Of a stretch of DNA of 64,000 nucleotides, positions 14,527 through 58,039 are shown in pieces. The notes under the pieces were generated by a model. The model was not told the origin of the DNA. It saw only the letters and a program-made list of their open reading frames with translations, and did not search any database. This DNA comes from a virus. The DNA lies in IMG/VR virus record IMGVR_UViG_3300036715_000875, positions 1 to 64,000 of that record. The stretch is one strand, 5' to 3'. Positions within the stretch are counted from its first letter, which is position 1; every line of letters begins with the position of its first letter. The translations under genes were made by a program, and so were the position numbers.

Positions 14527-17500
14527 TGGAGTTTAATGCCAGAGACCTAATAGGTCAAATTATGGGAATAAAGAATGCCCAAGACGCTACCCAAGTTAGA
14601 GCAAGACTTAATAGTCTTAAAGGCAAAGTTACAGATACTCAGTATAATCAATTAACTAACGCATTAGAGTCAAAAACTAAAAATATGCCAAGTAACCCTA
14701 TAGGTAGACAGAGTAATGTAGACTTGAATAGCCTACAATGGGGAACTCCAAATATTGTTCAGCAAGCTAATGAGCTAAAGAGAAGTGCAGCTCTAGAGCA
14801 ATTAGCTCTAGATAAGCAAGTAGCTATGGATAATCTTATAGCTAAGACTACAGATCATGGCAGATCAATAACTCCAAATAAACCAAATAACTCTAGATAT
14901 AAGCCACTTAATCCAGCTGTAGCACCATATAGTACCTTAACTAAAGATACAAGTATATCTTGGGAAGTTAATGAGTTTTTAACTCGTTACTTTACTCAAA
15001 AGTCAGGGCTATCTGCAGATACTCAGTGGAAAGCGTTCGTTAGAGGTAGTAGTATGCCAAAGGGCATGCAGTACAATAGTAACTTAGAGCAACAGGTTCT
15101 TCAAGAGGTTAAAGCTTTAGAAGACCGCCTAGGTGGCTCAAATCAGGCAAAACAACACTTTAGTGGTATGTCATACCAGTCTACTGTGAGAGAAATCGAA
15201 GGTGTTAAAGTAGCTCTTAATACAGCTTTTTCTAATGATAAGAAGACTGCACTACTCTTCGCGCTAGATAAAGGCAATGAGGATACACTATCTAAGTCTT
15301 TAGCTCAGATGTTTAGCTTATATAAAGGCTTAGAAAAGATTGAAGTGGCTACTAAGTCAGGGGTTAAGACTTTTACACGAGATAGCAATATTATCTCTGG
15401 ACCTACTACTGATAATCTATTACAAGGTAAAGCTAAACTTGCGCAGAATGCTAATAGACTTAAGAAAGATCATATAGGTACAACAAACTATTATAAGCCA
15501 ACTCAAGCTGCAAAGACTACGTATGAGAATACTCAAGCAGAACTTCAGGCTATAGCACTTAAGCAACTTGAAGATCTATCTAAAACTGCAGTAGCTACTA
15601 TGCCAGTGGGAGTACTAGAAAAGTTTTTAGCTCATACCAAAGTAAAAGATTTAAAGAAGTATGGGTCATACTTTGGAGACCAGTTTAGTAAGTTAGCTCA
15701 GTATTCACTAAGTGATAATAATACTTTAAGTCAGACTTTATCCCCTGAGCAGGTTAAAAACATAAGACTAGCAACTGCTAGAAATCGTGCAGAAGAGTAT
15801 GCTGTACATGCTAGAGCAGCTCAGAAGCAAACTGTTAACCTAGGTAGTGAACTAGGGGTAAGTAAAAAGGCTATTATCACTGAGGCGAGTAAAAACCTTG
15901 GGCGAGATACTACAAAGCATCTAGAAGCACTACACGCTATTAACTCATTTTTTACAGAGTCTAAGCATGATGCTATAGCCTATGCTAGACAAACTGGAAG
16001 TAAAGAAACAAATCCTCAAGCCCTCTTTGATAAAAAGTATCCTGAGCGTATTGGGTTCTTAGACCTAATGAAAAGTTCAAGGCCAGAGGTTTATAAGTCT
16101 GCGGTATCAATGCTAATGGCAAATAAAAATAATAGAACTTGGTTAGAGTCGAGAGGCTTATTAGCTGAGAATACAGCTAACCCAATTCTTAACCTTAAGG
16201 GACTTGTACAAGAGAAGTTTACTAGAGTATTAGCTAGATCAATTTCTGATAATCCAAATTCTATAGATGGTAGAATGGACCCAGAGCTATTAAACTTATT
16301 ATCAAGTAAAGCACTAGGCCATGCTAATAAGATATTTGAGAGTGAACGTAATGTAGCTTCTCCAGTTGGAGCACTAGCTGTAAAGAAATTTGAGGGCCGT
16401 TTAATAGATAACCTTAATGATATGGTAGAAGGCCAGAAATTTGCTAAGGTGTATAACTCTGCAGGGTTCACACAAGTTGTTAATAAAACTCTAATGGGTG
16501 ATATTGACCTAGGTGATACAGTAGCCAATAGGGCTGAGCAGCAAGAAAAACTTCAGCAAGAGAGTTCTAGAATTTTTAGTGACATGATTAAAAATCATGA
16601 GGGTAAAGTTAAAGTTCAAGCTCTAGAGCAAATGAAGCAACAAGCTCATGAGCAGGCTATGTTTAACCTAGGCCTCGACTCTGACGGTATGCAGATTGAA
16701 ACCTTAAGTCTTAAGGAAAAATTCTTTGGTGCTCAATCTCAAGTTAATATTGGAAAACTGCTTAAAGCTAAGAATCTAGATAAAGTTAACTCAAGTAAAT
16801 TATCAGAGTTTGATCAACTACAGATAAAGATGGCCAAAGGTACAATGACTATTGAAGACCATAAGAATCTTATGGATACTGCAGCTGCACTTGGTATAGG
16901 TAATTCTAGTAATTTTGGCTCTATTGGTGGACTTCAGAAGATAATTAAAGGGCTTAGAGAAGGCCAGTATGAGTTTAACGCTTTAACTGTTGAGGGTAAG
17001 GCTGATCTTAGTTCTCCTAGAATTCATATTAGTAAAGAACTTCGTAAGAGTATTCTAGAAGGCTTTTCTTCTGACCCTAAGATTAATAAGCAACAACTAG
17101 CGGAGTATAATAAACTTGGATTATATAATGAAGTAGATGGAAGACTTGAAGTGTCTAAGATTATGAAGACAGCTTCTGAGTCAACTCTTATGATGGTTAA
17201 AGGGTCTCCAGAGGATAAAAAGACTAGACAGTACTTAACTGAGTATTTTGCTGGGTTAGATGTAGATCAACTTACAGTTGGAGAAAAGAAAAGAGCTGTA
17301 GCTATCCATACAGCATTAGCTAGTGGTGCAGCTGTAACTCAAAAGATGGTAGATATTAGAAAAAATGCTCAAGTAAAAGCTGACCCTCATAATATGATTG
17401 AAAATATGTATAATACTCTTAGCTTAGACCCTAAGAACGCGCAGTATACAACACTAAAAGCCTCACAACATAGTATTCTTAGAAAGAAGTCTGAGCTTAC

Positions 17501-20500
17501 CGATCAAGCGTTACAAAATATGCTTAAGTATGATTCAGTTAAGCAATTTTATAATAACCCAGAAGTAGCCGGTAAAGTTGATGGGTTCTACGCAAGTGTA
17601 CCAGTAGATGGAGCAGAGACTAACAAACTAATATCACGCTTAGGTGAGTTTGGAACTTTAGAGACAAGTAAGTTGAGAGACTTTAGAGGTATGAAGCTAA
17701 ATGATAAACTTAACCTAGTTGGTAAGGCTTTACATATAAAGTACCTAGATAGTCTAGGCACAGATGCTAATGGTAATAAGGTACATACAGCTAGATCAAT
17801 AGCATACTCTTCAGCTATGAATAAACTATCAGGAGATATAGCGTCTCTAACTAGTGGTCAAGTAGGCCGTACAGCAAAGCTTGATATAGTTAGTAAGCTA
17901 CGAGGCACCCCAGTAGCAAGCTTAGTATCCCAAAAGTACTTAGAGAATGAGATGGCTAATACAATAGCGTTTGCTCATTTAAACACTGGAGGAGACCGTA
18001 AGTTCCAGTTAGGGGATATAGTTGATGACTTATCTAAGGCAAGACTAAAAGCAGAAGCCCTAACTAACATAGAGCGTGACTTTGGTATACATAGAGAGGG
18101 TCTTGGAGCAGTTCAGTACCCATTTAAAGCATTAGCTGGACAAGGTACAACTGAGTTGAGAGCTTCTAGACTTAGTATGTTAGACTCACTTAGTAATGCA
18201 AGCCCTCTGGGTGGGCAGTTCTATGATAGTATAGACTTAGACCCAGGCGCATTAGGCTATGTAGCTAAAAGCACTAGGGAGGTAGCTATTAATAATCATA
18301 AGAGAAACCTAGCTACCTCAGCCCTTATGAAGGGTAGACAAGTAGAACTACCTTCTGAAGAACCTAGGCTAAGACCATTCATAAGAGCAGCTAGAGAAGG
18401 TAAAGTTAAGTTCTCAGCAACTGATCTACTAGAACTAGCTAAGCATGTACCATTCTTACGCTTAGCTACTGGAGGAAAGATTCCAGGTAAAGGCCATGTT
18501 GATGAAGTTCCTGCGCTATTAATGAAAGGTGAAATGGTAGTTGATAGAGCTACTACAGAGAGTTTAGGGATTCATACAAATAGCGATTATAAAAGATTTA
18601 AGCAAGCAATAGCTAATGGTAAAGTCAAACACTTTGCAGAGGGTGGTATGACAGATGAGGAGAAGCAAAAAATTCAAGATGCACTACTATCTCAAGGCAT
18701 TAGCCTAGAGTCAGCAGCTAAGATTCTAGAAAGTAGTGTTGGTAAGGCTCCTGGGGCTCGCCTAGGAGAGTCAGTACTAAGTCTAGGAGATGAACCTGAG
18801 TATAACCATACTCCTGCGGCAGTTGCTGTAGATAATGGAGTTAAGCCAAAAGCTCCTAGTGCATTGAAAGCTATTAATACTGATACCATAGCTAAAAAGA
18901 CTGAGAGTGCGAATGCTTTTAGGGAACTAACTAACCAGCTTAAACGAGGAACAATACTTGACGCTGCAACAATGCTTAGCCCTAAGAATCTTCTAGAACT
19001 AGAACAAGCTCATGGTTCAGGCTTTGTAAGTAAGCTGAAACCTTACCAAGAGTTAGTAGCTAATAGTGGTAGCTTATCTAAGGTAGACTCAATTGAGTCT
19101 ATATTATCAGTTAATAACTCTTCATCTTTAGGGGCAGATCAAGCGGCAATACTTAAGAAGATTAGTAGTAGTAAAGCGCAGACTCTTAATATAAAAGAGA
19201 GAACTGACTCAGCTAATGCAGACTTTGTTAGTAACATGAATAATACGGCTATGAATGAGTTAGCTGAAATGTGGAAAGACCCTCGTAAAGCTAAGAACAT
19301 GATGAGTAGAGTTCTAGAGGCTGAGACAACAGCTACTAATCCTAAGACAGTTAAAAATGTCTCTGATATGAAAGTAAAGATGACTGAGCTAATGCTAGGT
19401 TCATCTTATGGTGAAGTAACAGACGCTTTAAGAAAAGGTGATACTAGCACACTATCACCTTTAGGTAGAGCCGCTCTTGATGGACTATCATCTAACTCAC
19501 AGCAGTTACAAGACTTTAAGAAAGTAGCTACTCCAGATATAGCTGAAGGTGTGCATAAGTATTCTGGAGCCAAAGATGATGGGCTAACAAACGCTATGAA
19601 GCTTGTTAATAATAACTTAACTGAGGTGTCTAAGATTCTTAGAACTGAGGCTAAGCCAATAACTAATAGAGCTGAGTTTAACCAGTTTATAGGCGAGGTT
19701 CTTAAGAATAATGCTGATGGAGGTTTCACTGCAGCTAATGTTGATGGTGGAGCTAAAGGGGCAGCAAAAGCTAAAGATATGTTTAATACTCTAAAAGGTG
19801 GTATTGATAAGAATCAAGACTTTGACTCTTACCACTCTATGGGTGAAATGGGTAGACAAGCAGAGTCTGTACAGCGAATCAAAGAGTCATCACAAATGCG
19901 ATGGGCGAACTTTAAAGACTTAATGGTACAAAATACAGCCTTCGCAGCTTCATATGCAGTACTTGGTGGGGCTACTAGTTCAATAGTTGGAGCTACTCAG
20001 TTTATAGTTAATCTTGATGAGAAGATGAAAAACTTACAAGCTATTACAGGGTCCACTACTCCTGAAGTAGCTAAGATGGCAAGTACTATTAAAGAGGTAT
20101 CAACTCAAACTAAGTTCTCAGCTGGAGAGATTGCTGATGCGGCAACAGTTCTAGGGCAAGCTGGGTTTAGTGCGCAAGATATTTCAGAGTCTCTTGGTGG
20201 GGTTGTTAAGCTAGCAACAGCTACAGGGTCCAGCCTAGATGAGGCTACACAAACATTAACATCAGCCCTAACAATTTGGGATGCTCCTATGAAGGCCTCA
20301 GAGAGCTATGCTAATGAGTTTACAGCAGCAATCAATAAGTCTAAGCTTGATATTAACTCTCTAGGTATGGCATTACAGTATTCAGGTAGTATTGCTGCTG
20401 AAGGTGGTATACCTGTAGAAGACCTTGTAACTGTTACATCTCTAATGAAAGATGCGGGGGTTAAGTCAGCATCAACTTCTGGGACAGGCCAGCGATTAGT

Positions 20501-23500
20501 CTATAGTGATATTTTAGCCCCGTCGTCTAAGTTCACTAAGTCTCTAGCTCAAGTAGGTATAACTAAGAAACAAATGGGTGAAAAGTTTGATGAAGAAGGC
20601 GTACTTGGTGTCTTGAAGCTGATGCGTGATGAAGGGTATGGCTTTGGGCAAGCAACCTCTGGTATGGAAGTTCGTGAGAAGTCCGCCTACTTAACAGTAG
20701 CGGGGCAACTTGATAGAGCTAGTAACTTTAGATCAAGTATTATGGGGACTAATGCAGCTGGAGACGCTAATAAGGTTCAAATGTCTTCTCTAGCTAATCA
20801 AACTAAAAATATGTTTAACTCTTGGGGTATTGCACTAGATACTATGGCTGGAGATAAGTTATCCTCTGTTGGAAGATTCTTTGAAGCTATTACATATTCT
20901 CCAAATAAGACTAATAACTTACAAGTTGGAGCAGGAGTAGACTACTATAAAGAGACCCAAGATGGGATTAATGGAGGAAACTCTGGAGTAGGCGGAGCAA
21001 TTATTGGGGGACTAGCTATAGGTGGAGCTGGATATGCCTTACATAAGTTTGCTAAGAATAACCCAGGTGGAGGCCTAGGTAAGATAGGGAGTAAACTCTA
21101 CTCTCCTCCTATAGAAGGTGGAGGGTTTAAAACCGCTTCAGGTGGGTTCTTTGGTGGGGCAGTAGATAAATTTAAAGGCTTATCAGTAGGGGCAAAAGCA
21201 GGTGGAGCCTTAGGTATATTAGAGACTGGGTATAACTTAGTTCAAGCTAGTCAGTCTAAAACACCAGTTAGAACATTTATTCAGGATATGATGCCAACCT
21301 TAATAGGCATAGCTACTGCGGCTATAGCAGCCCCTCTTCTAGGCTTAGGAGCAGTTGCAGCTGGGGGTGTAGGAATCGGTGCAAGTTTATTAGGTGGGTC
21401 AGCTCTTAAAGGTAGTACTGATAAGGCTGTTGATAAAGTAGGTAATTTCTTTGGGACAGACTGGGGCAAGCCAACAGGTAACGAAATTCTACAAGACGCT
21501 GGAGCTCGGTTAGCGGGAAGTAAGTCTACTCTTAGTGACTTATATAAATACGAGAACGCTGTAGGTAAGGCAAAAAATAACCCTTTAAGAGATGGTAAAG
21601 ACGCTACAGAGGCAGATAAGGCTATTACTAGGTCTAATATAACTAAGCAGGGGTTACAATTTAATGAGTCATTTAAGGCTGAAATAGACCAGCTAGAGAA
21701 AGCAACTGGCCAAGTAACAGACTTCTCTAATGCAGGAAGTGCTGATGAGTTACAGAGCCAGCTTAAAAGCTTTAGAAAAAGCTTTAAAGAGAATATAGTA
21801 GTCAAGTCATTTAAACCTATGATGGAAGCTTTAGAAAAGACTTCAGCAACACCTATAGAAGACCTTACAGGTAAAACTGTAGGAGATGCTACTAAAGCTG
21901 CAGAGAGTAAGATAGGCTCTACACTTGCTAACTTAGCAACAGTAGCACCTGAGTTGCTTCTAGCTCAAGGTAAAGAACTAGATAAGGTAACTAGAAAGTA
22001 TTTTGCTGGAGCTCTTAAACAGGATACTAAGCTACTCCAAGATAAGCTAGCTGGAGAAGTCTCTAGTGGTGAGATAACTAAAACTGAGAGTGGTGCTAAG
22101 TATATTAAGGAAAAAGCAAAGCTAACGAATGAAAATACTAAGCGTGAAAAAGCAGTACTTGATAGTAGACGATCTGAAGCATTGACAGGGTATGTTAATC
22201 TTAACTCTTCAGATGAGGTAATGAAGTATGTAGCTGACTTGAAAGGAAACACTGCAAAAGGGGCTATTAGAACAAAAGCTGAAGTAGCAGATAATAAGTT
22301 CACACAAGCTGAGTTTGCTAGTATTGAAAAAGGTTCAGCTACTCAGTACCAAAGACATAGAGAAGAAGAGACTGGGATAGATAAGATTAAAGCTCAGGTT
22401 GTTGAGTTAGTGAATCAGACAGATGAGATTAACCAAGCGTTTAAAAGTTTCTACAAAGATACTATATCTCAAGTTGGCCAGCAAGCAGTAGACCTAGGAA
22501 GAAAGTTTGGTAATACCATGCTTAAGGAAGCTTCAAACCTTGGTAATAGCAATTGGGGTGATACAGCTGGGCTACAACATACTCTAGGGAGTATGGCAGT
22601 AAATGGCCTAAATGAAAAGTATATGAAAACTAGCCCAACAGACCTTGAGTCTAAGAGTGTTATTAGCCTACTTAATAAAAATATTAAGTTTAATACTCTT
22701 GGAGCTTTACAAGCCGGAGGAAATCAAGCTGGAGCTAAAGAGTTTAATGCTATGCTAGCAGCTGAGCCAATTGCAGCAGCTATTGCAGATATGCCTTCTA
22801 CTCTTGAAGGTTTAATTAATAAGCATGGACAAGATCCATTTATGCTTAAGCAGTTTAATGCTAGAAAAGATGCCTTAGAGAATAATGGTATTAATAGAAA
22901 TGTTGATATTGATGCTCTTAAAGGACTAAGCTTCGAAAATATTCTGGCTATGTCAACTAAGCAGAAAGAATCTATAGTTGACCCGCTAGCTAAAAAGAAG
23001 ATGGAGACTAGTAAGAATTTTGAAATTTATCAGCTTGATGCTAAATATGCCTCAATCAAAGAAATGCAAATTGGTGGTAAGAATATTTCTGAAAATCAGT
23101 CTGAAAAAGGCTATGCTCTAAAAGAGAATCATAGGCAGTATGAGTTAGGAATAGCAGCATTCAATAGAAGTCAAGAGTTCCAAAAGACTCAGTTGATGAC
23201 AAACTATTCTAGAAATATAAGGGACTTTAGCGCTAGGATAGACTTCCAGCGCCAAGAAATGGGAATAGGTTTTGCTCAGTCACAAGCAGCAGCTCAAAGA
23301 CAATATGACTTCCAACAGACTATGATAAGGATGCAAGCTGGATGGGCAAAAGCTGATGCGTTAAAAGGGTCAGGAGATAGTAAAGATGATGCAGGTAAGA
23401 AGAGAGACTATGCTATCCAAGACCTAAACCTAAATACTAAGTATAAGACTGAGGATGTTAATAAAGACTTCTCTAGAACAGTAGCGCAGCTGAATACAAG

Positions 23501-25634
23501 CCTTACTAGACAGATAGATGGCATTGATAGAGCTATGCAGTTCTCTAGAGATATGTTTAACCGTAGTATGGATAAGCCAGTTAATCTTACCCTTAATCCA
23601 GCAGCCTTTTTAAAAGTTGCGGATAACTTGAATGATAATACTCTAGCTCTAGATGCCCATAAAGCAGAGCTAGGTGCTAATACTACAGCTATCCAGCAAT
23701 TAGTAGGTCTTCAGCAAACTAAAGAATCTTTAGTAAAAGACGCTTATAAGTATGCTTATAAAAGTGTAGGTGGCGCAGTAACTAATGAAGATGGGACCAC
23801 AAGTGCTAAGTTTACTGAGATGTATGATAAATATATGCAAAATAATAGTGGGCAGTTATTAGATACTGTATTGAATCAGGCAATGAATAAAACTTTCGCT
23901 GGTGCAGGCTTTGATGCAACTAAAGCTCTAACAGACTCTAACTATATTGCTCAGTCAGTTGCGAATCCTGGAGAATCAACTACCCCTGCAGGTATTATGC
24001 AAGGTAGCGGATACTCAGTAGAAGACTTTGTTAATGCCCTATTTAAGGATGGTAGTGGTGAAATCCACGTAACTACATCTCAAGGGGTAGTACTTGAAGC
24101 TCAAGGTAACTTGGCTGGAGCCTTATTTGATTTAGAGACTCAGATGGTAAGCTATCAGAATCAAATATCTGAGGTAGGTATAGCTTTCTCTCAGAATATG
24201 GAGGACGCTAGACTATCGCTTAAGTATTCTTTAGATGATATAGCTACCGCTTATCAAAGAGGTCTTGATGCTATCAATACAGCCTATGCTAGAGATATTG
24301 AACAAATTAGTGATTCTTTACAGCGCGCTATGGAAGCTATCTCTACTAACCTGGATAGACAGGCAGAGTCAGCTGCTTTACAACATCAGTTCCAAATGCA
24401 AGAGGCTGCTATACAGTTCCAGCAAGCTTTAGAAGCTCTATCTAGACAAGAGGCATTTAATAAAGCACAAATGGAGCAAGGGCTTAAAGATGCTCTTACT
24501 GACTTAGCATCAACAGCAGAGTTTAAACTTGGGGAATCGGCTATAAATAATGACCAGAATATAATTAGTATTAACGATCAGTTCGGCAGGCTTATAGAAA
24601 AGCTTGACTTACAAAAAGAAGAAAACATTAGAGCTCTTGAGCAACAGTATAATGATACTCTATCTAAAGTTATAATAGATGCCCAAATAATGCTAGAGAT
24701 GTTTAATAGATCATTAAAGGCTGCATTAACTGAGCAACTACCAGATCTAGCTTATGCAGTTAAGTCTATTGAAGGAGGGATAAATAAAGCTGCAACTGAA
24801 ATGGACTGGAAGTTTGCAGGGGCAATTAAAGCTATCTCTGAAGGCTGGGATAAGGCATTCAAAGATGATGCAACATCTAAGGCTATTAGAGAACTTGGTG
24901 GGGCTACTCTTAGATCAATAGTTGACTCTATGGGTAAAGACCAAGATACAACTATTAAGGATGTCTGGGCTAAGTATGATGAGCCTATTAAGAACGCCTT
25001 TAAAGCCTCATATGACTCATTAGCAACTAATGTACAAACAGCGGCTACTGAGTCAGGAAAGAAAATTGTAGAAGCGGCAGCTGTAGTTCAGCAAAACTCA
25101 GTAGCACTAGACCAAGCATTAACTAAATTAACCACTTTTGGTGAAGCTAGAAGCTCTGACTTAACAAATATGACAACAACGCTAGCTAGTTTAGCAAGCA
25201 CAACTATAAATGCTATGTCTACAATGGCTACACAAATAGCGGCTGCAAGAGATTCTATAGCTCGTGCAGCATCAGCTGGAACAGGATATAACACTGGAGG
25301 GGCAATACCAGGGTATGGTGGAGGAGACTCAGTCCCAGCTATGCTAGAACCTGGTGAGTATGTACTACGTAAAGAGGCTGTAAGGTCTTTAGGAATAGAC
25401 TATGTGGCTGGACTAAATAATTCAATAGTCGGGGCTAAGCTTGGTGATGGATTGTCATCAATATCTATCAAGAATGTAACAAGTTTACCAACGCAAGCCA
25501 CAGAGGCTAAAAGTGGTGATAGTAATATCTCAGTAGGTATTTCAGTTCATCCAGAGATGACTATTAGGTCTATCCAGGATAATATAGAAAAGATTGCTGA
25601 TGGGGTTCATAAAGTATTTCAGGAGTATATGTAA
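14526..25634 (+). CDS. giant tape measure protein (3702 aa)
   Basis: TP901-family tape-measure core at about 19950-20850 (T.FSA.EIA.A...LGQAGF, LA.ATG..L.EA); Gly-rich hydrophobic segments; long Q/A-rich helical repeats; GG.IPG.G..D.VPA.L..GE.V motif. Confidence 0.9.
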   Translation: MEFNARDLIGQIMGIKNAQDATQVRARLNSLKGKVTDTQYNQLTNALESKTKNMPSNPIGRQSNVDLNSLQWGTPNIVQQANELKRSAALEQLALDKQVAMDNLIAKTTDHGRSITPNKPNNSRYKPLNPAVAPYSTLTKDTSISWEVNEFLTRYFTQKSGLSADTQWKAFVRGSSMPKGMQYNSNLEQQVLQEVKALEDRLGGSNQAKQHFSGMSYQSTVREIEGVKVALNTAFSNDKKTALLFALDKGNEDTLSKSLAQMFSLYKGLEKIEVATKSGVKTFTRDSNIISGPTTDNLLQGKAKLAQNANRLKKDHIGTTNYYKPTQAAKTTYENTQAELQAIALKQLEDLSKTAVATMPVGVLEKFLAHTKVKDLKKYGSYFGDQFSKLAQYSLSDNNTLSQTLSPEQVKNIRLATARNRAEEYAVHARAAQKQTVNLGSELGVSKKAIITEASKNLGRDTTKHLEALHAINSFFTESKHDAIAYARQTGSKETNPQALFDKKYPERIGFLDLMKSSRPEVYKSAVSMLMANKNNRTWLESRGLLAENTANPILNLKGLVQEKFTRVLARSISDNPNSIDGRMDPELLNLLSSKALGHANKIFESERNVASPVGALAVKKFEGRLIDNLNDMVEGQKFAKVYNSAGFTQVVNKTLMGDIDLGDTVANRAEQQEKLQQESSRIFSDMIKNHEGKVKVQALEQMKQQAHEQAMFNLGLDSDGMQIETLSLKEKFFGAQSQVNIGKLLKAKNLDKVNSSKLSEFDQLQIKMAKGTMTIEDHKNLMDTAAALGIGNSSNFGSIGGLQKIIKGLREGQYEFNALTVEGKADLSSPRIHISKELRKSILEGFSSDPKINKQQLAEYNKLGLYNEVDGRLEVSKIMKTASESTLMMVKGSPEDKKTRQYLTEYFAGLDVDQLTVGEKKRAVAIHTALASGAAVTQKMVDIRKNAQVKADPHNMIENMYNTLSLDPKNAQYTTLKASQHSILRKKSELTDQALQNMLKYDSVKQFYNNPEVAGKVDGFYASVPVDGAETNKLISRLGEFGTLETSKLRDFRGMKLNDKLNLVGKALHIKYLDSLGTDANGNKVHTARSIAYSSAMNKLSGDIASLTSGQVGRTAKLDIVSKLRGTPVASLVSQKYLENEMANTIAFAHLNTGGDRKFQLGDIVDDLSKARLKAEALTNIERDFGIHREGLGAVQYPFKALAGQGTTELRASRLSMLDSLSNASPLGGQFYDSIDLDPGALGYVAKSTREVAINNHKRNLATSALMKGRQVELPSEEPRLRPFIRAAREGKVKFSATDLLELAKHVPFLRLATGGKIPGKGHVDEVPALLMKGEMVVDRATTESLGIHTNSDYKRFKQAIANGKVKHFAEGGMTDEEKQKIQDALLSQGISLESAAKILESSVGKAPGARLGESVLSLGDEPEYNHTPAAVAVDNGVKPKAPSALKAINTDTIAKKTESANAFRELTNQLKRGTILDAATMLSPKNLLELEQAHGSGFVSKLKPYQELVANSGSLSKVDSIESILSVNNSSSLGADQAAILKKISSSKAQTLNIKERTDSANADFVSNMNNTAMNELAEMWKDPRKAKNMMSRVLEAETTATNPKTVKNVSDMKVKMTELMLGSSYGEVTDALRKGDTSTLSPLGRAALDGLSSNSQQLQDFKKVATPDIAEGVHKYSGAKDDGLTNAMKLVNNNLTEVSKILRTEAKPITNRAEFNQFIGEVLKNNADGGFTAANVDGGAKGAAKAKDMFNTLKGGIDKNQDFDSYHSMGEMGRQAESVQRIKESSQMRWANFKDLMVQNTAFAASYAVLGGATSSIVGATQFIVNLDEKMKNLQAITGSTTPEVAKMASTIKEVSTQTKFSAGEIADAATVLGQAGFSAQDISESLGGVVKLATATGSSLDEATQTLTSALTIWDAPMKASESYANEFTAAINKSKLDINSLGMALQYSGSIAAEGGIPVEDLVTVTSLMKDAGVKSASTSGTGQRLVYSDILAPSSKFTKSLAQVGITKKQMGEKFDEEGVLGVLKLMRDEGYGFGQATSGMEVREKSAYLTVAGQLDRASNFRSSIMGTNAAGDANKVQMSSLANQTKNMFNSWGIALDTMAGDKLSSVGRFFEAITYSPNKTNNLQVGAGVDYYKETQDGINGGNSGVGGAIIGGLAIGGAGYALHKFAKNNPGGGLGKIGSKLYSPPIEGGGFKTASGGFFGGAVDKFKGLSVGAKAGGALGILETGYNLVQASQSKTPVRTFIQDMMPTLIGIATAAIAAPLLGLGAVAAGGVGIGASLLGGSALKGSTDKAVDKVGNFFGTDWGKPTGNEILQDAGARLAGSKSTLSDLYKYENAVGKAKNNPLRDGKDATEADKAITRSNITKQGLQFNESFKAEIDQLEKATGQVTDFSNAGSADELQSQLKSFRKSFKENIVVKSFKPMMEALEKTSATPIEDLTGKTVGDATKAAESKIGSTLANLATVAPELLLAQGKELDKVTRKYFAGALKQDTKLLQDKLAGEVSSGEITKTESGAKYIKEKAKLTNENTKREKAVLDSRRSEALTGYVNLNSSDEVMKYVADLKGNTAKGAIRTKAEVADNKFTQAEFASIEKGSATQYQRHREEETGIDKIKAQVVELVNQTDEINQAFKSFYKDTISQVGQQAVDLGRKFGNTMLKEASNLGNSNWGDTAGLQHTLGSMAVNGLNEKYMKTSPTDLESKSVISLLNKNIKFNTLGALQAGGNQAGAKEFNAMLAAEPIAAAIADMPSTLEGLINKHGQDPFMLKQFNARKDALENNGINRNVDIDALKGLSFENILAMSTKQKESIVDPLAKKKMETSKNFEIYQLDAKYASIKEMQIGGKNISENQSEKGYALKENHRQYELGIAAFNRSQEFQKTQLMTNYSRNIRDFSARIDFQRQEMGIGFAQSQAAAQRQYDFQQTMIRMQAGWAKADALKGSGDSKDDAGKKRDYAIQDLNLNTKYKTEDVNKDFSRTVAQLNTSLTRQIDGIDRAMQFSRDMFNRSMDKPVNLTLNPAAFLKVADNLNDNTLALDAHKAELGANTTAIQQLVGLQQTKESLVKDAYKYAYKSVGGAVTNEDGTTSAKFTEMYDKYMQNNSGQLLDTVLNQAMNKTFAGAGFDATKALTDSNYIAQSVANPGESTTPAGIMQGSGYSVEDFVNALFKDGSGEIHVTTSQGVVLEAQGNLAGALFDLETQMVSYQNQISEVGIAFSQNMEDARLSLKYSLDDIATAYQRGLDAINTAYARDIEQISDSLQRAMEAISTNLDRQAESAALQHQFQMQEAAIQFQQALEALSRQEAFNKAQMEQGLKDALTDLASTAEFKLGESAINNDQNIISINDQFGRLIEKLDLQKEENIRALEQQYNDTLSKVIIDAQIMLEMFNRSLKAALTEQLPDLAYAVKSIEGGINKAATEMDWKFAGAIKAISEGWDKAFKDDATSKAIRELGGATLRSIVDSMGKDQDTTIKDVWAKYDEPIKNAFKASYDSLATNVQTAATESGKKIVEAAAVVQQNSVALDQALTKLTTFGEARSSDLTNMTTTLASLASTTINAMSTMATQIAAARDSIARAASAGTGYNTGGAIPGYGGGDSVPAMLEPGEYVLRKEAVRSLGIDYVAGLNNSIVGAKLGDGLSSISIKNVTSLPTQATEAKSGDSNISVGISVHPEMTIRSIQDNIEKIADGVHKVFQEYM

Positions 25635-45699: not shown

Positions 45700-46157
45700 C
45701 AGTGTCTCCAAAATTCAAATTTTATTTCATACTTATACTTAGCCAGCTCTTCCCATTTCCATGATGCAGCTGGTGACTTAAACTTATCCATAACTATAGA
45801 GAATGGTACAAAGTACCAAGATTGTGTAGGAAGGTGGTGGAGGATAAACATACTTCTCCACCCAGCCTTAATATAGCGCATAGCAAAACCAAGCTGAGAG
45901 CCAGATATGTTCTTTAATGGAAATCGTATAAGGTCTACTGAAGATTTAACTTCAACTAGCCAGGGCTGACTTCTCCAAGTAATATAGTAATCACTAGGAG
46001 CTGGCTGTACTAGATTACGAGCATCAGAAGAGTCAGTGAATCTACCATAGATAAACTCATGATTAGCTTCCATAATACATTTTAGATGGGCTAAATACTC
46101 TTTTTCAGAAGGCTTACCGTTATTTTTTGACATACTCATACTCCAGGTAGCTACCAC
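45699..46157 (-). CDS. RecU-like Holliday junction resolvase
   Basis: G..SE, PSDY, EVKS, Q PD-(D/E)xK motifs; real start probably a downstream Met (MSKNNGK). Confidence 0.75.
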   Translation of the reverse strand: MVATWSMSMSKNNGKPSEKEYLAHLKCIMEANHEFIYGRFTDSSDARNLVQPAPSDYYITWRSQPWLVEVKSSVDLIRFPLKNISGSQLGFAMRYIKAGWRSMFILHHLPTQSWYFVPFSIVMDKFKSPAASWKWEELAKYKYEIKFEFWRH

Positions 46158-46575
46158 AGTCTATATTGTTAGCTAACTCATAACCATTTAAAAAGTCAAC
46201 CGGAAACGTATACCCTGAATTAAGTTTAGCCATAGCTTGATGGATAATAAGTTTAGCTGGAGAATATTTTTTAAATGTCTCAACGCCTCCAAAATTAACT
46301 TCAATAGCTAGTGGACTAAGATCATCCAGCGGATTAACTGAGGCTACATTTTTAAACCCGTAGATTCTATCATACGTAGGAACATACCAAGTCTTAGCTA
46401 AAGCTAACAACTTTGGGAACTTAGAGATAGTCATAAATGTGCTATACCCCACAAGAACTGTTTTACCTGTAATGAACTCTTTTACCCACTGCTTATCTTT
46501 AGCTGGACCCCAAGAGACGTCTCCAGTATCATCTGCACAAAACCAGTCACTACTAACTAGCATAATTCCAATCAT
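46120..46575 (-). CDS. dihydrofolate reductase-like protein
   Basis: W.P..D...(V)K....K.VLVG..TF and FGG motifs. Confidence 0.75.
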   Translation of the reverse strand: MIGIMLVSSDWFCADDTGDVSWGPAKDKQWVKEFITGKTVLVGYSTFMTISKFPKLLALAKTWYVPTYDRIYGFKNVASVNPLDDLSPLAIEVNFGGVETFKKYSPAKLIIHQAMAKLNSGYTFPVDFLNGYELANNIDCGSYLEYEYVKK

Positions 46576-46880
46576 ATCTTATCCTTACCTTGGGGAAACT
46601 CTACCCCAAATTTATGTTTCAAGACTATGACAATAGCCTTGAACTGTTCGCGTTGTTCTAGAGTTGGGCTCTTAAGATGAATACCTTTTTTCCAAGCGTC
46701 AGCTAATCGCCACTGTTCAATAAACTCATACTCACTAACTAAAGGGTTACTTTTATAGGCCGCTGGAATTCCTGTACCTTTTAGTGTGCTAAAGTTAAGA
46801 GTACTTTTAAATGAAGTTTCCTCTTTAATCTCTTTAGTAGTCTTTAGACCAGACAAGTTGATCTTTCTACCTTCTAGCAT
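46572..46880 (-). CDS. hypothetical protein
   Basis: Coupled ORF with SD AAGGAG. Confidence 0.6.
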   Translation of the reverse strand: MLEGRKINLSGLKTTKEIKEETSFKSTLNFSTLKGTGIPAAYKSNPLVSEYEFIEQWRLADAWKKGIHLKSPTLEQREQFKAIVIVLKHKFGVEFPQGKDKI

Positions 46881-47275
46881 GTTATCTCCTTAACGTCAAT
46901 GAACTTCTTACAATGTAATAATACCATAGGTTCTTTCACTAATCCTCTAAAGATTATTTTCTGAACCCCAAATTGGACTAAATGCTTAGCGCAGTTTTCG
47001 CAAGGGAAATAGTTAATATACAAGGTTGAACCTTGTATATCATTAATATCTCTGGCATTAGCTATGCCATTCATCTCTGCATGTATCACCCGCCAATGCT
47101 CAGTCTTACCTTCAGAATCTTCACAGCAGTTGCTATCGCCTTTGATAGTGCCATTAACTCCTGTAGCGATTATATGATTATCCTTGACAAATATAGCCGC
47201 TACTTGTTTCTTTTTACAATGAGACTGAGTAGCAAAAATATCTACTAAGTCTAACCAAAATAAATCGCCCCACAT
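46874..47275 (-). CDS. dCMP deaminase family protein
   Basis: HAEMN and PCENC zinc motifs; TGVNG. Confidence 0.92.
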   Translation of the reverse strand: MWGDLFWLDLVDIFATQSHCKKKQVAAIFVKDNHIIATGVNGTIKGDSNCCEDSEGKTEHWRVIHAEMNGIANARDINDIQGSTLYINYFPCENCAKHLVQFGVQKIIFRGLVKEPMVLLHCKKFIDVKEITC

Positions 47276-47277
47276 AT

Positions 47278-48114
47278 TTACTGAACTACTTCTGGCTTAG
47301 GATTCCAGTCATTAGGCTTATAAGTTAACATAGCATTAGAAGTGACACTAGCTACAAATAGATCTGGATATAAGCGAGCGTCTTCAATAGTATCCATAAA
47401 GGATACTGTCTCATTAGCTTTATTATATGGTGTTATGAGCATTTGACTACACATAACATAGTGATTCTCATAGATATGAGCGTGTGCTATAGCATAAGAT
47501 AGCACTCCTACTTGAACCTCTAGTGAGTTAGCAAGTAACTTTCCTAGTAGCGTATACATTAAAAAGTCATAAGGTAGTCCAACGATAATATCATTTGATC
47601 TTAGGGTTAAATGGATATTTAGTTTTCCATCGATAATATTAATCACCGCTGTATAAGGACAAGGTACGTTCTTAACTGGAATAACATTATCTCTACTTGC
47701 ATCCCAGCTCATTAACACTTGCTGACGAGATGAAGGGTCAGCTTTCAATTTATCAATGATATTAGCGATTTGATCTACTCCAAAGGCATGCTGCCATCTA
47801 TAGCCATAAGCTGTAGAAATAGTCCCAGGGTTATTATCATCTTCAAACATTTTCCAGATACCCGTGTACTTACTAATCCACTCTGTAGACTGTTCGCCAC
47901 TAAGCATCCAAGCTACTTCTGCAGCTCCTGTCTTTACAAAACTTTTTCTCAAGTGTAGTAAAGGATAGAAGTCCATATCCCACTTAAAGAACATTCCATG
48001 AAACGCTATAACATTTGTACCAGTTCGTTCATTAAATTGAGAAGTCCCATTATTTAGGACTCCATTAATAGCTTCTAAATAAAGCTCATCAAAATATGTG
48101 TGTACCTTGTACAT
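47278..48114 (-). CDS. thymidylate synthase-family enzyme, probable dCMP (hydroxy)methylase
   Basis: RTGT, E..W.L.G, YG.RW, catalytic PC, RSND, HAHIY; GLPYD where ThyA has G.PFN. Confidence 0.85.
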   Translation of the reverse strand: MYKVHTYFDELYLEAINGVLNNGTSQFNERTGTNVIAFHGMFFKWDMDFYPLLHLRKSFVKTGAAEVAWMLSGEQSTEWISKYTGIWKMFEDDNNPGTISTAYGYRWQHAFGVDQIANIIDKLKADPSSRQQVLMSWDASRDNVIPVKNVPCPYTAVINIIDGKLNIHLTLRSNDIIVGLPYDFLMYTLLGKLLANSLEVQVGVLSYAIAHAHIYENHYVMCSQMLITPYNKANETVSFMDTIEDARLYPDLFVASVTSNAMLTYKPNDWNPKPEVVQ

Positions 48115-50028
48115 TTAGTTTCCTTTCGACTGATAGCCACTTAAGGCTTTTTCAATTGCATTAGATATACTTCCAGCTTCAGATACTTCTACCTGATCTG
48201 CAAAGTTAATACCGACTGATACTGCAGCTTCTAAAGGTAATGAAAACCCTTTAGGTGTATATTCCATGATTTCTACAATCTTTGGAATATAGAGTTCAGC
48301 CATACTACTCTTCATAGAGAAAACAAATTCGTCATGAATAGGAGCCATAAAAGTTATACCAGAGTTAAAGAGTAATTCTTCATGGTCTAGTGTAGTCATT
48401 GAGAGTTTCATAAGCTCAGAACAGCTACCTTGAACAATTGAGTTAACAACTTTATTCTTGGCCTCAGCTCTAATAGCTTTAATTGGGCTCTGCATCTCAG
48501 GAAGGTGCCTTGTACGTCCAAACATAGTTCTTACGTATAGATTCTGCGTTGCGAATTGAACTTGCTCATTCCAGTAGTCATAGAAGTACTTTGAGTAACC
48601 ATTCTTATGTGCCATCAAGAAAGCTTCAGCTTCAGCTTCATAACAGTTTAGAAGATCAAACTTAGCTAATCGCTTTGGCGATGCCCCATACAATGCAGCA
48701 AAGTTAAGTGTCTTTCCTTTTTGACGAGCTTTCTTAGCGGCGGCATCGCCATTTGCGAGTAGCGCCTTCATCTCATCGTAGCTAACACCTAAGATATTCG
48801 TACCAGAAACGGTATGTAGATCTTTACCTGTATTATAAGCATCGAGTAGCTTAGGGTCTTGTGACAAGTGGCCAGCCATACGTAACTCAATTTGAGACCA
48901 ATCTACTGACACAATAATATCTTCGTCTTTTTCATAGTTAGGGATAAATACCTTACGGACTTTAACACCTTCACCGCGCTTTGAAATCTGCTGAAGATTA
49001 GGAGAACCCATAGAGAATCTTCCAGTAACTGTACCAGTCTGTCTTAACTCAGAGTGGATACGACCATCAGGATAGCGTAAGTTTGGATAGGCTTTATAGT
49101 AAAGCTTCTCTCGAGTCTCAACTGCTTTAGCTTCACCAAGTGCAGCTAACATAGGGTGTTCATGCCCATGGTCTAAGACTAAGTTAAATAAGGTCTCTTT
49201 ATCAGTGCTTGCTTGGCCAGACTTACCAACCTTAACAACCGGTAGCTTCAAGACATTGAATAATAGATGACTAAGTTGCTTAGGACTATTAAGGTTAACA
49301 CCTTGTAAGTCTGGGTGGGCTGATAATAGTTTACGCTCAGTGGCAATGTCAGCTGCTCTAATAGTATCAAGAAGTTCAAAGTCAACATTCTGACCGCTAA
49401 TATAGAGCTTGCTCGCAATAGCTGGAATATCCATTTCAAATGTTTCATAGTAATCCAAGTTAATCTTAGAAGCATATAGATCAAATAGCTTCAGTGTCCA
49501 GGTAGCATCTGACATACCATATTCATAGCCTTCTGCCCCTGTTATATCGGCCATACTTCCATCACCGACAGTCTCTTTATAGGAGGGCATCTCATGATGG
49601 AAAAACCGTTTAACAGAAGGCTTAAGGCCCTGAGCCATATTCTCATTCCAGTTTGTACCCATAACCATAGTATCCCATAGTTTACCTTTGAGTTCATAAC
49701 CGTGAAGCTTAAGTAGTGTGTACTCAAATGAGAAGTTGTGTGCAATCCATTCTTGTGATTTGTTGTTATCAAGAATTAGAGGAAGGTAATCATAACTTAA
49801 GTCTCCGTCTTTATGAGCGAAGTTAAAGTACATTTCAATACCAGAACGTGTAGCGAGCTGTAAGCTTGCAATAGCAGAGTTAATACGATTAAGAGGTTTA
49901 GTCTTCTCAGTACAGTTGTGAAACCAATCTAGCTTTGTGAATGTTTCAAGGTCGATAGACCAGATTTCTTCTGGGCTATCTTTAAGGATTGCTAAGGCCT
50001 CGTTTATATTCGAGCTTGTTACCAGCAT
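48115..50028 (-). CDS. family A DNA polymerase
   Basis: DLET 3'-5' exo motif, TGRFS..PNLQ, DWSQIELR, K.LNFA.LYG, IHDE. Confidence 0.96.
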   Translation of the reverse strand: MLVTSSNINEALAILKDSPEEIWSIDLETFTKLDWFHNCTEKTKPLNRINSAIASLQLATRSGIEMYFNFAHKDGDLSYDYLPLILDNNKSQEWIAHNFSFEYTLLKLHGYELKGKLWDTMVMGTNWNENMAQGLKPSVKRFFHHEMPSYKETVGDGSMADITGAEGYEYGMSDATWTLKLFDLYASKINLDYYETFEMDIPAIASKLYISGQNVDFELLDTIRAADIATERKLLSAHPDLQGVNLNSPKQLSHLLFNVLKLPVVKVGKSGQASTDKETLFNLVLDHGHEHPMLAALGEAKAVETREKLYYKAYPNLRYPDGRIHSELRQTGTVTGRFSMGSPNLQQISKRGEGVKVRKVFIPNYEKDEDIIVSVDWSQIELRMAGHLSQDPKLLDAYNTGKDLHTVSGTNILGVSYDEMKALLANGDAAAKKARQKGKTLNFAALYGASPKRLAKFDLLNCYEAEAEAFLMAHKNGYSKYFYDYWNEQVQFATQNLYVRTMFGRTRHLPEMQSPIKAIRAEAKNKVVNSIVQGSCSELMKLSMTTLDHEELLFNSGITFMAPIHDEFVFSMKSSMAELYIPKIVEIMEYTPKGFSLPLEAAVSVGINFADQVEVSEAGSISNAIEKALSGYQSKGN

Positions 50029-50039
50029 TATAGTACCTT

Positions 50040-50774
50040 TTATTGAAGGATTAAGATTTGATTTGCATCAAGAAAGTCTTGAAGCGGGGTGTTGATTTTT
50101 TCTAACTCATTGATAGAATAGCCATAATATTGCATAGCTAATTTATGAGACATTATAGCATGAGGTGTAAATAAGTCACTCTCATCATATTGCTCATCAG
50201 ATAATAGTTTAGTTAGTATATCCCGCTCATCAGCTGATAGCTTCTGATAGGCTACTTTACCAAACCCCTTCTTACCAGGGATATTATCACTAGAGTCACC
50301 GACTAGTGTTTTATATAGTAAGATATGAGCTGGATTGGGGCTAAAGAACTTTTGCTCAATCAGCTGCTCATCTACCTTTGTATTACCATTGATATATACA
50401 GTCACACCATAACCGGTTAAGTGCCATAAGTCTTTATCATTTGAAACGACTACGTCACCTTTCTTCGCTTGGCATGCTATATAATCATCAGCTTCTCCAC
50501 CCTTAACCTCGATCACACTGACACTATCAAAGTGTCTTCCCATGCTCACGATATTATTATAGATAGAGAAATATACAGGGTCGTCGGTACTACCTCTACC
50601 AGCTTTATACCCTTCAAAGATTCCTTTACGGAAGTTTCTAGAGGAAGCTGTATCACAAACCATTTGAATCTTCTTACCTCGATGTTTTTCAAGGAGGGCT
50701 AAGAATAGCTCATAAGGGTCTCCACCGCCGTGGTAGATTCTCTTAATATAGTTATTAGTATCAATATAGACCAT
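50040..50774 (-). CDS. 5'-3' exonuclease / flap endonuclease
   Basis: YKAGR, EADD, SNDKDL, GDSSDNIPG..GFG. Confidence 0.92.
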   Translation of the reverse strand: MVYIDTNNYIKRIYHGGGDPYELFLALLEKHRGKKIQMVCDTASSRNFRKGIFEGYKAGRGSTDDPVYFSIYNNIVSMGRHFDSVSVIEVKGGEADDYIACQAKKGDVVVSNDKDLWHLTGYGVTVYINGNTKVDEQLIEQKFFSPNPAHILLYKTLVGDSSDNIPGKKGFGKVAYQKLSADERDILTKLLSDEQYDESDLFTPHAIMSHKLAMQYYGYSINELEKINTPLQDFLDANQILILQ

Positions 50775-51276
50775 CTGGAATGGCCTTTCCCTTTGTTAAG
50801 GTAACACGTTCAATAGTCAACTCAGGAAATCCTTGAGTAAGATAGTGTGCAGCTTTTTCAAAGGCTTGACGGATAGCTTCATAGCCATGCTTTTCAAATG
50901 GGTCGTTCTCATCATAAGGAGCAAAAGGCTTATTTATAACATAGATAATCCGCTCGGGCATATTATCCTTATATACATAGGTAGTATACAAATGGATAAT
51001 ATCAGCGGGTTCCATATTATTGAGAAGATACCCTTGATAAGCTAGCATAGAAAGAATATCTCTATCCAAGACTATGTTCTTATCTTTACTCTCTTCCCAA
51101 AACTTTTGGGCATCGGCGAAGAATAGGAATGGGTTATTCATTTCACCAGAAAATATTAGAGGCCTGACAGTTGGTGATGGTAGGAATCGAAATTCTCTAC
51201 CAGTTTCTTCTGCCAATGCCTGGGCCATTGTTGTTTTACCACACCGATCAGGACCTTCAATAAGAATTACTCCCAT
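50761..51276 (-). CDS. dNMP kinase (thymidylate kinase fold)
   Basis: EGPDRCGKTT, LDR...S.LAYQG. Confidence 0.88.
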   Translation of the reverse strand: MGVILIEGPDRCGKTTMAQALAEETGREFRFLPSPTVRPLIFSGEMNNPFLFFADAQKFWEESKDKNIVLDRDILSMLAYQGYLLNNMEPADIIHLYTTYVYKDNMPERIIYVINKPFAPYDENDPFEKHGYEAIRQAFEKAAHYLTQGFPELTIERVTLTKGKAIPDGLY

Positions 51277-52459: not shown

Positions 52460-53044
52460 TTATAAGCGATGTAGGATGCCAAATTTTAGACCTAATACTA
52501 CCTGATCTTTCTTAGAAAGACCTCTAATGTATTCTAAGACTATCTCAAAGCGTTCATCTTCTATAACATCATCAAGCGTAGTATCAAAAGTGCTCGCTCC
52601 AAAGTCTAGCTGCTCTTCACTTTCATAGTTAGACATATTTTCTGTACTGAGTCCAAGAACTAGTTCAACTATATGTAACTCTATACTAAGTTCAGTAGCT
52701 ATTAATATAGCTTCTGGCTCGCGTTCATGTGTTAGTAGATACTTATCAATGTACTTATAAATCTTGAGCTTAAAGTTAACTATATGGCTAGGAAGTCTTA
52801 TAGTTCTAGACTTATTAGTTAAGGCTTCTATGATAGCTTGCTTACACCAGAAGTTAGCATAGGTAGAAAACTTAGTACCAAATGATGGGTCATATCGTCT
52901 AGCCGCTTTAATTAGGCCAATATTACCTTCCTGTACTAAGTCTTCATATGGAATATTCCTACTGCTATACTGTCTAGCCTTTATCTTAGGTATATGTAGA
53001 TGAGTCTCAATTAGTGTGACTTGTTCAAATGTTAGAGCTTCCAT
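52460..53044 (-). CDS. sigma70-family factor (regions 2, 3 and 4.1; no 4.2 HTH)
   Basis: DLVQEGNIGLIKAA.RYDP..G.KFSTYA.FW..QAI; IRLP.H; ends at LS.....VL.LKFG. Confidence 0.9.
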   Translation of the reverse strand: MEALTFEQVTLIETHLHIPKIKARQYSSRNIPYEDLVQEGNIGLIKAARRYDPSFGTKFSTYANFWCKQAIIEALTNKSRTIRLPSHIVNFKLKIYKYIDKYLLTHEREPEAILIATELSIELHIVELVLGLSTENMSNYESEEQLDFGASTFDTTLDDVIEDERFEIVLEYIRGLSKKDQVVLGLKFGILHRL

Positions 53045-57168: not shown

Positions 57169-57420
57169 CTATTCCCCCAATGTTTTTTTAACCTCTAGTA
57201 ACGCTTTGGCTTTAGCCATATTCTTCTTTAACAAGGTTTGATAGAGAAGAATCTTTTTCATGTCAAGTTCAGAGTATAAGGCCTTCCCAGGTTTTCCTGG
57301 GACTTTTCCTTTCACTCCTGAGATACTTAGGTCATTACATAGATTGTAAAGGGTATTTATTTTATACCCACAAATAGCTCCAATAAACTCTATTGTATAG
57401 GCTGGCTCAGTTGTGTACAT
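57169..57420 (-). CDS. MerR-like HTH protein
   Basis: YTI...A.CG....TL ... LYSE.D pattern. Confidence 0.55.
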   Translation of the reverse strand: MYTTEPAYTIEFIGAICGYKINTLYNLCNDLSISGVKGKVPGKPGKALYSELDMKKILLYQTLLKKNMAKAKALLEVKKTLGE

Positions 57421-57949
57421 TGTATAATGCCTTCAATTTAGAGTAGATTTCTTCATAGCCATTACAGTAGGCCATTACATCTTTGAGATAATAGTTATCT
57501 TCTTTACCGGACCAAATCTTGGAGTAAGTTCCATTGCCATAGCCATTTTCTTGTCTAAGAACATTTAGAGCCTGCTTACCTATGATAATCTTAGTAACAG
57601 CAGGATAGTTGTGCATAACTGTAGCGATAAGGTCCTCAAAACGTAGCTCATGGATTAACTTAATCATAGAAGTTAAGAACATGAAGTCATCAGAAGTAGC
57701 CTCTGGCTGAGCTTTACCTGTTCGTAGCTCTGGACGGTAGTATAGACAATTCATACTAAAAATGGTCATATCGACCAACTCAACAACCATATTATCTTCG
57801 TCTCTTTCTGAGACTTTCCAGTCATGAAAACCTAGTGAGGCTGTAAACTCTCCCAACTCTTCAATCAATGCTTTGTACATTACCTCAAAAGTTGTCGCCT
57901 TAGCGTAAGTCTGCTGGAAGTGAACTTGACGGTCAATAATTTTATTCAT
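57407..57949 (-). CDS. dimeric all-alpha dUTPase (or dCTPase), Campylobacter type
   Basis: EE..E...WK, VELVD..IF, K..LN..RQ.NGY..G.Y.K.W.G.EDN; start revised to ATG 57949. Confidence 0.85.
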   Translation of the reverse strand: MNKIIDRQVHFQQTYAKATTFEVMYKALIEELGEFTASLGFHDWKVSERDEDNMVVELVDMTIFSMNCLYYRPELRTGKAQPEATSDDFMFLTSMIKLIHELRFEDLIATVMHNYPAVTKIIIGKQALNVLRQENGYGNGTYSKIWSGKEDNYYLKDVMAYCNGYEEIYSKLKALYNVHN

Positions 57950-57996
57950 AGGGTTACCTTTTTTCTTTAATGTGATTTCACTTTGTATACTATAAT

Positions 57997-58039
57997 AAAA
58001 AACCGGTGGCATACCGTAAATAACGATACGCTACCGGTT
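57997..58039 (-). terminator. intrinsic terminator
   Basis: AACCGGTAGCGTATCG...CGGTATGCCACCGGTT long stem running into a T6 tract. Confidence 0.75.

Follow-up and report, generated by a model that had tools for sequence, protein, structure and literature searches.

The window analysed here, bases 1–64,000 of the complete 74,883-bp IMG/VR virus record IMGVR_UViG_3300036715_000875 (with direct terminal repeats), derives from an uncultivated tailed phage of a long-tailed lineage from microbial mat or sediment. At 47278–48114 on the minus strand it encodes a thymidylate synthase (TS) homolog that, going by its active-site residues and its relatives, is very likely a dCMP methylase. Together with an adjoining deaminase, a dihydrofolate reductase (DHFR)-like protein, a nucleotide kinase and a nucleoside triphosphate pyrophosphohydrolase (NTPase), this enzyme probably forms an Xp12-type pre-replicative cytosine-replacement pathway, including genome-wide 5-methylcytosine (5mC). 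An initial annotation, made from the letters alone, had proposed 5-methyl-dCMP as the product; the Xp12-like active-site signature, C-terminal motif, clade and gene order described below support that proposal, which also matches the pathway published for phage Xp12 and for pairs of Asp177-bearing TS homologs and deaminases (bioRxiv 10.1101/2024.12.05.627091; eLife PMC8670742). The genes concerned are the following.

46120–46575, minus strand: highly divergent protein with a DHFR fold, 151 aa, predicted on that basis to be a dihydrofolate reductase
46572–46880, minus strand: 102-aa open reading frame (ORF) between the deaminase and DHFR-like genes, with a weak homolog at the same place in the related contig L012 (E 5e-6)
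46874–47275, minus strand: dCMP-deaminase-family zinc deaminase, 133 aa (PF00383, phrog_174)
47278–48114, minus strand: TS homolog, 278 aa, predicted dCMP C5-methyltransferase (5-methyl-dCMP synthase)
48115–50028, minus strand: family A DNA polymerase (from the ORF list), in the same transcription unit as the TS gene, its stop codon abutting the TS start codon
50761–51276, minus strand: P-loop dNMP kinase resembling thymidylate kinase, 171 aa, a candidate for phosphorylating 5-methyl-dCMP
57407–58012, minus strand: dimeric-dUTPase-family protein, 201 aa, an all-alpha NTP pyrophosphohydrolase and candidate dUTPase or dCTPase

The TS homolog scored 160.3 bits against PF00303 (cut-off 24.3; E 6.7e-47) and matched phrog_160 (E 9e-57) and E. 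coli ThyA structures in the PDB (E 7e-27). It is the sole TS-family gene of the complete 74,883-bp genome, in which neither a ThyX nor a DNA C5-methyltransferase was found. Residues are numbered here after E. coli ThyA, based on a MAFFT alignment. The enzyme contains the motifs LRSNDIIVGLPYD, NVPCPY, DPSSRQQ and GIWKMF; the shorter strings quoted in the initial annotation (RSND...GLPYD, PCP and SRQ) were all located in this ORF, and the aspartate to which dCMP specificity had been ascribed indeed aligns with position 177. Relative to E. coli ThyA, the changes are N177D (GLPYD), H147P (PCP) and R127Q (SRQ), and further L143N, W83F, Q165L and F176Y, while Trp80, the catalytic Cys146, Glu58, Tyr94, Arg126, Arg166, Ser167, Asp169, His207 and Tyr209 are kept. 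Asp177 was found in 124 and Asn143 in 122 of 126 aligned sequences (120 database relatives and six references); hence, the substitutions are family traits and not chance. Asp177 is the residue that selects dCMP (PMC8670742).

The same enzyme fell below every NCBIfam ThyA equivalog cut-off (101.4 against 108.35 for TIGR03284 and 123.6 against 327 for NF002497), as did the Xp12 enzyme, and thus none of the marks of canonical ThyA (Asn177, His147 and an equivalog-level NCBIfam score) was found in it. These scores bear on the possibility that the cluster is an ordinary dTMP module like T4 cd/td/frd, in which the deaminase converts dCMP to dUMP, the TS methylates dUMP and the DHFR recycles folate. 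Such a module would account for the presence of the same three enzyme families, which make up the classical de novo dTMP set, and for the name 'thymidylate synthase' that every top PDB and NCBIfam match bears. However, Asp177 and Pro147 occupy the two positions that best discriminate modified-cytosine from canonical contigs (PMC8670742), and the enzyme groups with dCMP methylases of proven activity, away from ThyA, so that together with the sub-threshold equivalog scores an ordinary dTMP module appears highly improbable.

Four sequence-based lines of evidence place the TS homolog with the methylases, namely its overall score, its active site, its C-terminus and its signature class. The phmmer scores were 159 and 152 bits to the enzymes of phages PaMx74 and Xp12, respectively, in comparison with 97 to E. 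coli ThyA, 95 to RB69 td, 38 to RB69 gp48 and 24 to T4 gp42. At 21 active-site positions, 18 residues were identical with Xp12, 14 with T4 gp42 and 13 with ThyA. The C-terminus reads NPKPEVVQ, where Xp12 has NPKPEVIE and PaMx74 NPRPEVVE; with this NP[KR]PEV end the C-terminal lid of ThyA is retained in a shorter form, which is lacking in T4 gp42 and RB69 gp48. For the signature class, a query with the single protein retrieved no related loci and an alignment query retrieved 80 IMG/VR loci; in these and the references, the residues at 143, 147 and 177 fell into two main classes, N-P-D (the window, Xp12, PaMx74 and loci L012–L016) and D-T-D (T4 gp42 and 74 loci, L017–L091). Aligned with ThyA, T4 gp42 and the Xp12 enzyme, as the initial annotation had suggested, the window enzyme thus reads N-P-D like Xp12 and stands apart from the D-T-D of T4 gp42: where the T4 type has an acidic residue 143, Thr147 and a short C-terminus, it has Asn143, Pro147 and a long C-terminus. 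Quick maximum-likelihood trees, with SH-aLRT support and no bootstrap, grouped the window, Xp12 and PaMx74 enzymes in one clade (SH-aLRT 98 for a clade of 21 rows in one tree and 95 for a clade of 16 rows in a second), and the whole N-P-D group formed a single branch (SH-aLRT 89) with ThyA and the D-T-D group outside it. The Xp12 TS homolog makes 5-methyl-dCMP and yields 5-methyldeoxycytidine (5mdC) in vivo, cytosine is fully replaced by 5mC in Xp12 and PaMx74, and five of seven deaminase-linked metavirome TS homologs gave 5mdC in vivo (bioRxiv 10.1101/2024.12.05.627091).

Asp177 is shared with T4 gp42 and RB69 gp48 too, and residue 143 is a polar Asn and not the water-excluding, bulky Leu of ThyA. 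Both features would suit a dCMP hydroxymethylase making 5-hydroxymethyl-dCMP (5hm-dCMP), or an enzyme that forms a different C5 derivative, for example 5-hydroxy-dCMP; T4 gp42 and RB69 gp48 are enzymes of these kinds. The bulky Leu143 is thought to keep water out of the ThyA active site, and Asp/Glu143 occurs in T4-type 5hm-dCMP and RB69-type 5-hydroxy-dCMP synthases, an acidic residue 143 marking hydroxymethyl and hydroxy products (PMC13326640). The T4-type combination of D/E143, T147 and no lid differs from the N143, P147 and lid that the window enzyme has in common with the Xp12 methylase, and the far lower scores to T4 gp42 and RB69 gp48 and their separate clade argue in the same direction. 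Among those ORFs that were scanned, a subset of all, neither a glycosyltransferase nor any other enzyme that tailors hydroxyl groups was recognised. The neighbourhood of the genes bears on the same question. Methylation by TS-type chemistry oxidises folate and hydroxymethylation does not, and a linked DHFR gene would be superfluous for the non-oxidising chemistry. A DHFR-like gene was detected within 10 kb of the TS gene in 5/5 N-P-D loci and 0/74 D-T-D loci, using our own profile and jackhmmer, which very divergent DHFRs could escape. Since only methylating enzymes oxidise folate, a DHFR linkage confined to N-P-D loci fits their assignment as methylases. The initial annotation had also read the retained tryptophan of the 'IW' motif (Trp80) as a sign of a methylase; the residue is indeed retained, but T4 gp42, a hydroxymethylase, keeps it as well, and therefore Trp80 cannot separate the two activities, which in these alignments are told apart by positions 143 and 147 and by the C-terminal lid. 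Taken with the DHFR linkage, these features leave a hydroxymethylated or hydroxylated product with only a slim chance.

As a separate observation on the D-T-D loci, 28 of the 74 carried a dCMP-deaminase-family gene within 10 kb, and a DHFR-like gene was detectable in none of the 74.

The cassette genes behind the polymerase gene are separated by 2-nt gaps or overlap slightly. A gap of 2 nt separates the TS gene from the deaminase gene, which follows TS likewise in Xp12 and PaMx74. The identity of the deaminase, as called in the initial annotation, was borne out by PF00383 (73.2 bits, cut-off 25; E 1.8e-20) and phrog_174 (E 2.4e-35), and the zinc motifs HAE and PCxxC are visible in the alignments. 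The best PDB match was the cyanophage S-TIM5 dCMP deaminase (E 1e-19), which at 138 aa is close in size to the 133-aa window protein, and the PBCV-1 dCMP/dCTP deaminase matched with an E of 2e-10. The core also matched the NCBIfam model NF041025, 'anti-phage dCTP deaminase' (E 4.6e-20, far under its cut-off), so the cores of dCMP- and dCTP-acting deaminases are close. The enzyme is predicted to convert a 5-methyl-dC nucleotide to a dT nucleotide. Older work on Xp12 reportedly placed deamination at the triphosphate level (5m-dCTP to dTTP). The initial annotation had envisaged deamination of 5-methyl-dCMP to dTMP; a deamination that yields thymidylate fits the published enzyme pairs, but the monophosphate level does not, as mSCD-B5, the single enzyme studied in depth, acts solely on triphosphates (5m-dCTP to dTTP) and single-stranded DNA (bioRxiv 10.1101/2024.12.05.627091). 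The 102-aa ORF that follows the deaminase gene had no Pfam or PHROG match; in the Protein Atlas no match reached 0.9, and its model there had a pLDDT of 0.47.

The DHFR-like gene of the cluster, also named in the initial annotation, was borne out by fold alone. The ORF misses Pfam DHFR_1 (PF00186; 13.5 bits against a cut-off of 25, E 0.059), and its family comprises 16 relatives among 1.8 billion representatives. A profile of this family matched exclusively DHFR-derived chains in the PDB, with E values of 0.003–0.7. The AF2 model, built with the alignment of relatives (pLDDT 95.2), has a DHFR fold: the 50 best Foldseek matches in the PDB were DHFR or DHFR-like, bar one annotated as a putative riboflavin biosynthesis protein, and the best of them (TM 0.77–0.81, probability 1.0) were S. 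aureus DHFR, DfrA1 and E. coli DHFR. The equivalents of the catalytic Asp27, of Gly43 and Thr46 and of Gly95-Gly96 in the NADPH loop are invariant in 22 family members. The family also includes members of ~130 aa that lack the 65–90 segment, as well as a 1781-aa protein (P0137) with seven matching stretches.

The kinase at 50761–51276, to which the initial annotation had assigned the phosphorylation of 5-methyl-dCMP, resembles thymidylate kinase by PF02223, with a marginal pass (28.5 bits against 27), and by phrog_761 (E 4e-17); it matched the dTMP kinase model TIGR00041 (E 1.4e-8) at 34.6 against 83.25 and hence is not an equivalog. Likewise, the all-alpha NTPase noted at 57407 was recovered as PF08761 dUTPase_2 (27.6 bits, cut-off 22.9), with further matches to the C. 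jejuni dUTPase 1W2Y (E 3.6e-11) and, under cut-off, to the NCBIfam dUTPase model NF049964 (E 5.6e-16). In related IMG/VR loci, the kinase gene lies ~3 kb upstream of the TS gene (L012 and L013) and the NTPase gene ~10 kb upstream (L012, L013 and L016). The window layout of NTPase, kinase and TS-deaminase-(102-aa ORF)-DHFR-like genes is repeated in five related IMG/VR contigs, with a different order in L014 (TS-DHFR-deaminase).

In the proposed pathway, the TS homolog would transfer the one-carbon unit of methylenetetrahydrofolate to C5 of dCMP, with reduction by the folate hydride, giving 5-methyl-dCMP and dihydrofolate, and the DHFR-fold protein would return dihydrofolate to tetrahydrofolate. 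The thymidylate-kinase-like enzyme and a host NDP kinase would raise 5-methyl-dCMP to 5-methyl-dCTP, which the phage polymerase would use instead of dCTP. The deaminase may turn part of the 5-methyl-dC nucleotide pool, as mono- or triphosphate, into dT nucleotide, and a dUMP-dependent ThyA would therefore be unnecessary. The dUTPase-family NTPase would keep dUTP, and perhaps dCTP, from the DNA.

The same gene set can be read with 5-methyl-dCMP solely as an intermediate of a uracil-free thymidylate route, in which case dCTP would not be excluded and virion cytosine would therefore be canonical or partly methylated. This possibility draws on the adjacent deaminase and the genome's lack of a dUMP-type TS, on the resemblance of the kinase to dTMP kinase, and on the sole NTPase, which is of the dUTPase family and whose family matches give no sign of dCTPase activity. 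We nevertheless consider it unlikely, as replacement is complete in both characterised phages with this cassette (bioRxiv 10.1101/2024.12.05.627091), and the NTPase, the kinase and the cassette are conserved jointly in relatives.

A number of observations weigh against the replacement pathway or against single steps of it. Identity of the TS homolog to the Xp12 enzyme is about 35%. Its Arg127, a phosphate-binding residue, is replaced by Gln or His in nearly the whole sub-lineage of the window and is kept in Xp12, PaMx74, ThyA and T4 gp42. Of the seven Asp177 TS homologs tested in vivo, two gave no 5mdC, and the 5mC selectivity of deaminases is polyphyletic and not predictable from sequence (bioRxiv 10.1101/2024.12.05.627091). 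The window deaminase resembles its PaMx74 (E 1e-10) and Xp12 (E 8e-5) counterparts only weakly. In the DHFR-like family, the equivalent of Arg57, which binds the folate carboxylate, falls in a gap, and that of Arg44, which binds the NADPH 2'-phosphate, is Y, H or K, in an alignment that is uncertain at 18–20% identity. Finally, a search run without a positive control found no homologs of the window kinase and NTPase in Xp12, PaMx74 or T4 at E<=1, and the substrates given above for these two enzymes are therefore guesses.

Base composition was considered as a proxy for modification. Across the 74,883-bp genome, the observed/expected ratio of CpG was 0.46, without an excess of TpG/CpA; GATC and CATG were under-represented (z about -7), and TGATCA occurred 5 times against 19.7 expected. 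These palindrome and dinucleotide statistics were set aside, as they speak neither for nor against full 5mC. A search of the genome for Tet_JBP gave no match, with the controls equally silent.

The cassette is part of a minus-strand replication block extending from ~59.7 to 42.9 kb, which holds genes for a ligase, a primase, a helicase, a sigma factor, the thymidylate-kinase-like enzyme, FEN and the family A DNA polymerase, in addition to the TS, deaminase and DHFR-like genes, a RecU-like resolvase and SbcCD. No phage record exceeds 31% identity to the polymerase (tblastn; the matches are phage DNA polymerase I), and no isolate phage appears close by this protein. Near-identical DNA was found, in the form of contigs, in four metagenome runs of microbial mat and sediment from 2020. 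Further features of the genome, the last two beyond the window, are as follows.

14526–25634, plus strand: tape measure protein, 3702 aa; residues ~1530–3070 match phrog_37649 (E 3e-56)
52460–53044, minus strand: phage sigma-70-type factor, 194 aa (phrog_351, E 3e-34), directly downstream of the helicase gene
67169–68617 of the genome (L092:4170–5618), minus strand: Laminin_G_3/ConA-like lectin domain protein, 482 aa (E 1e-13)
70172–70708 of the genome (L092:7173–7709), minus strand: SLT lytic transglycosylase domain protein, 178 aa (E 1.5e-5)

Taken as a tape measure, the 3702-aa ORF would be unusually long; its N-terminal ~1500 residues had no PHROG match. An identification of this ORF as an N4-like virion RNA polymerase was discarded, because PHROGs give a tape measure protein.

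The Xp12/mSCD pathway is already known, and the preprint describing it screened IMG/VR for this gene pair (bioRxiv 10.1101/2024.12.05.627091). As the pathway and its metagenomic spread have been described, no new question is opened here. What is new is modest: a distinct lineage of uncultivated phage, a very divergent DHFR-fold family tied to N-P-D enzymes, and an NTPase and a kinase from families that differ from those in Xp12 and T4. Since orthology to Xp12 is clear for the TS homolog alone, the pathway would combine an orthologous methylase with largely non-orthologous helpers. It is conceivable, if doubtful, that a 5mC pathway was assembled independently in this lineage, and that it constitutes a distinct variant if cofactor or substrate use is changed in the DHFR-fold protein or in the R127Q methylase. 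Full replacement of C by 5mC is a defence against restriction enzymes. Should the pathway operate as proposed, an environmental phage lineage would join the viruses with all C replaced by 5mC, and it would supply a methylase of compact size, a small deaminase as a candidate for 5mC nucleotides, and a DHFR that is both minimal and highly divergent. Deaminases of this kind are under development for use in direct methylation sequencing, as reagents. The N-P-D versus D-T-D signature, combined with DHFR linkage, would further provide a simple rule for telling methyl from hydroxymethyl products in metagenomes.

Among known systems, Xp12 (MT664984) encodes a TS homolog (QNN97214), a dCMP-deaminase-family protein (QNN97213) and a DHFR (QNN97212). 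The window shares with it the TS signature N143/P147/F83/L165/Y176/D177, the NPKPEV end, the clade and the lack of a second TS; the Xp12 enzyme differs by an insert of ~20 residues after Trp80 that is absent in the window enzyme. The best match of the window TS and deaminase in a characterised phage was the thyA-cd-frd cassette of PaMx74 (Pamexvirus), a 58.6-kb phage of Pseudomonas aeruginosa. The order TS-deaminase-DHFR is common to the window, Xp12 and PaMx74, with the NTPase gene preceding it in PaMx74 as in the window. In contrast to both phages, which have Arg127, the window TS has Gln; its DHFR belongs to a separate and far more divergent lineage; a 102-aa ORF is inserted in its cassette; and its NTPase is of the dUTPase_2 type, encoded 9 kb off, and is not homologous to the PRA-PH-type NTPase that adjoins the TS gene in Xp12 and PaMx74. 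Apart from the cassette, all that the phage had in common with these two was the helicase and two weakly matching structural or lysis genes, the remaining genome being unrelated.

The metavirome pairs of TS(D177) and mSCD were defined by a PF00383 gene within 3 kb of a D177 PF00303 gene, beside a family A DNA polymerase (bioRxiv 10.1101/2024.12.05.627091), and the window shows the same arrangement. The likeness of its deaminase to mSCD-B5, which takes triphosphates and single-stranded DNA only, is one of gene arrangement. T4 likewise has a TS-family enzyme with Asp177 acting on dCMP and, alongside it, a kinase, an NTPase, a deaminase and a DHFR (gp42, the gp1 kinase, the gp56 dCTPase/dUTPase, cd and frd, with td). 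However, T4 gp42 has D143 and T147, lacks the C-terminal lid and falls in a separate clade, and T4 keeps a true ThyA (td). Finally, according to Hardy & Nalivaika (1992) and Liu & Santi (1992), both cited in PMC8670742, a TS becomes a dCMP methylase through a single Asn to Asp change (N177D in E. coli ThyA, N229D in the L. casei enzyme). The window enzyme has the same Asp on a ThyA-like scaffold with a lid and, unlike these mutants, is a natural enzyme that additionally carries P147, N143, F83, L165, Y176 and Q127.

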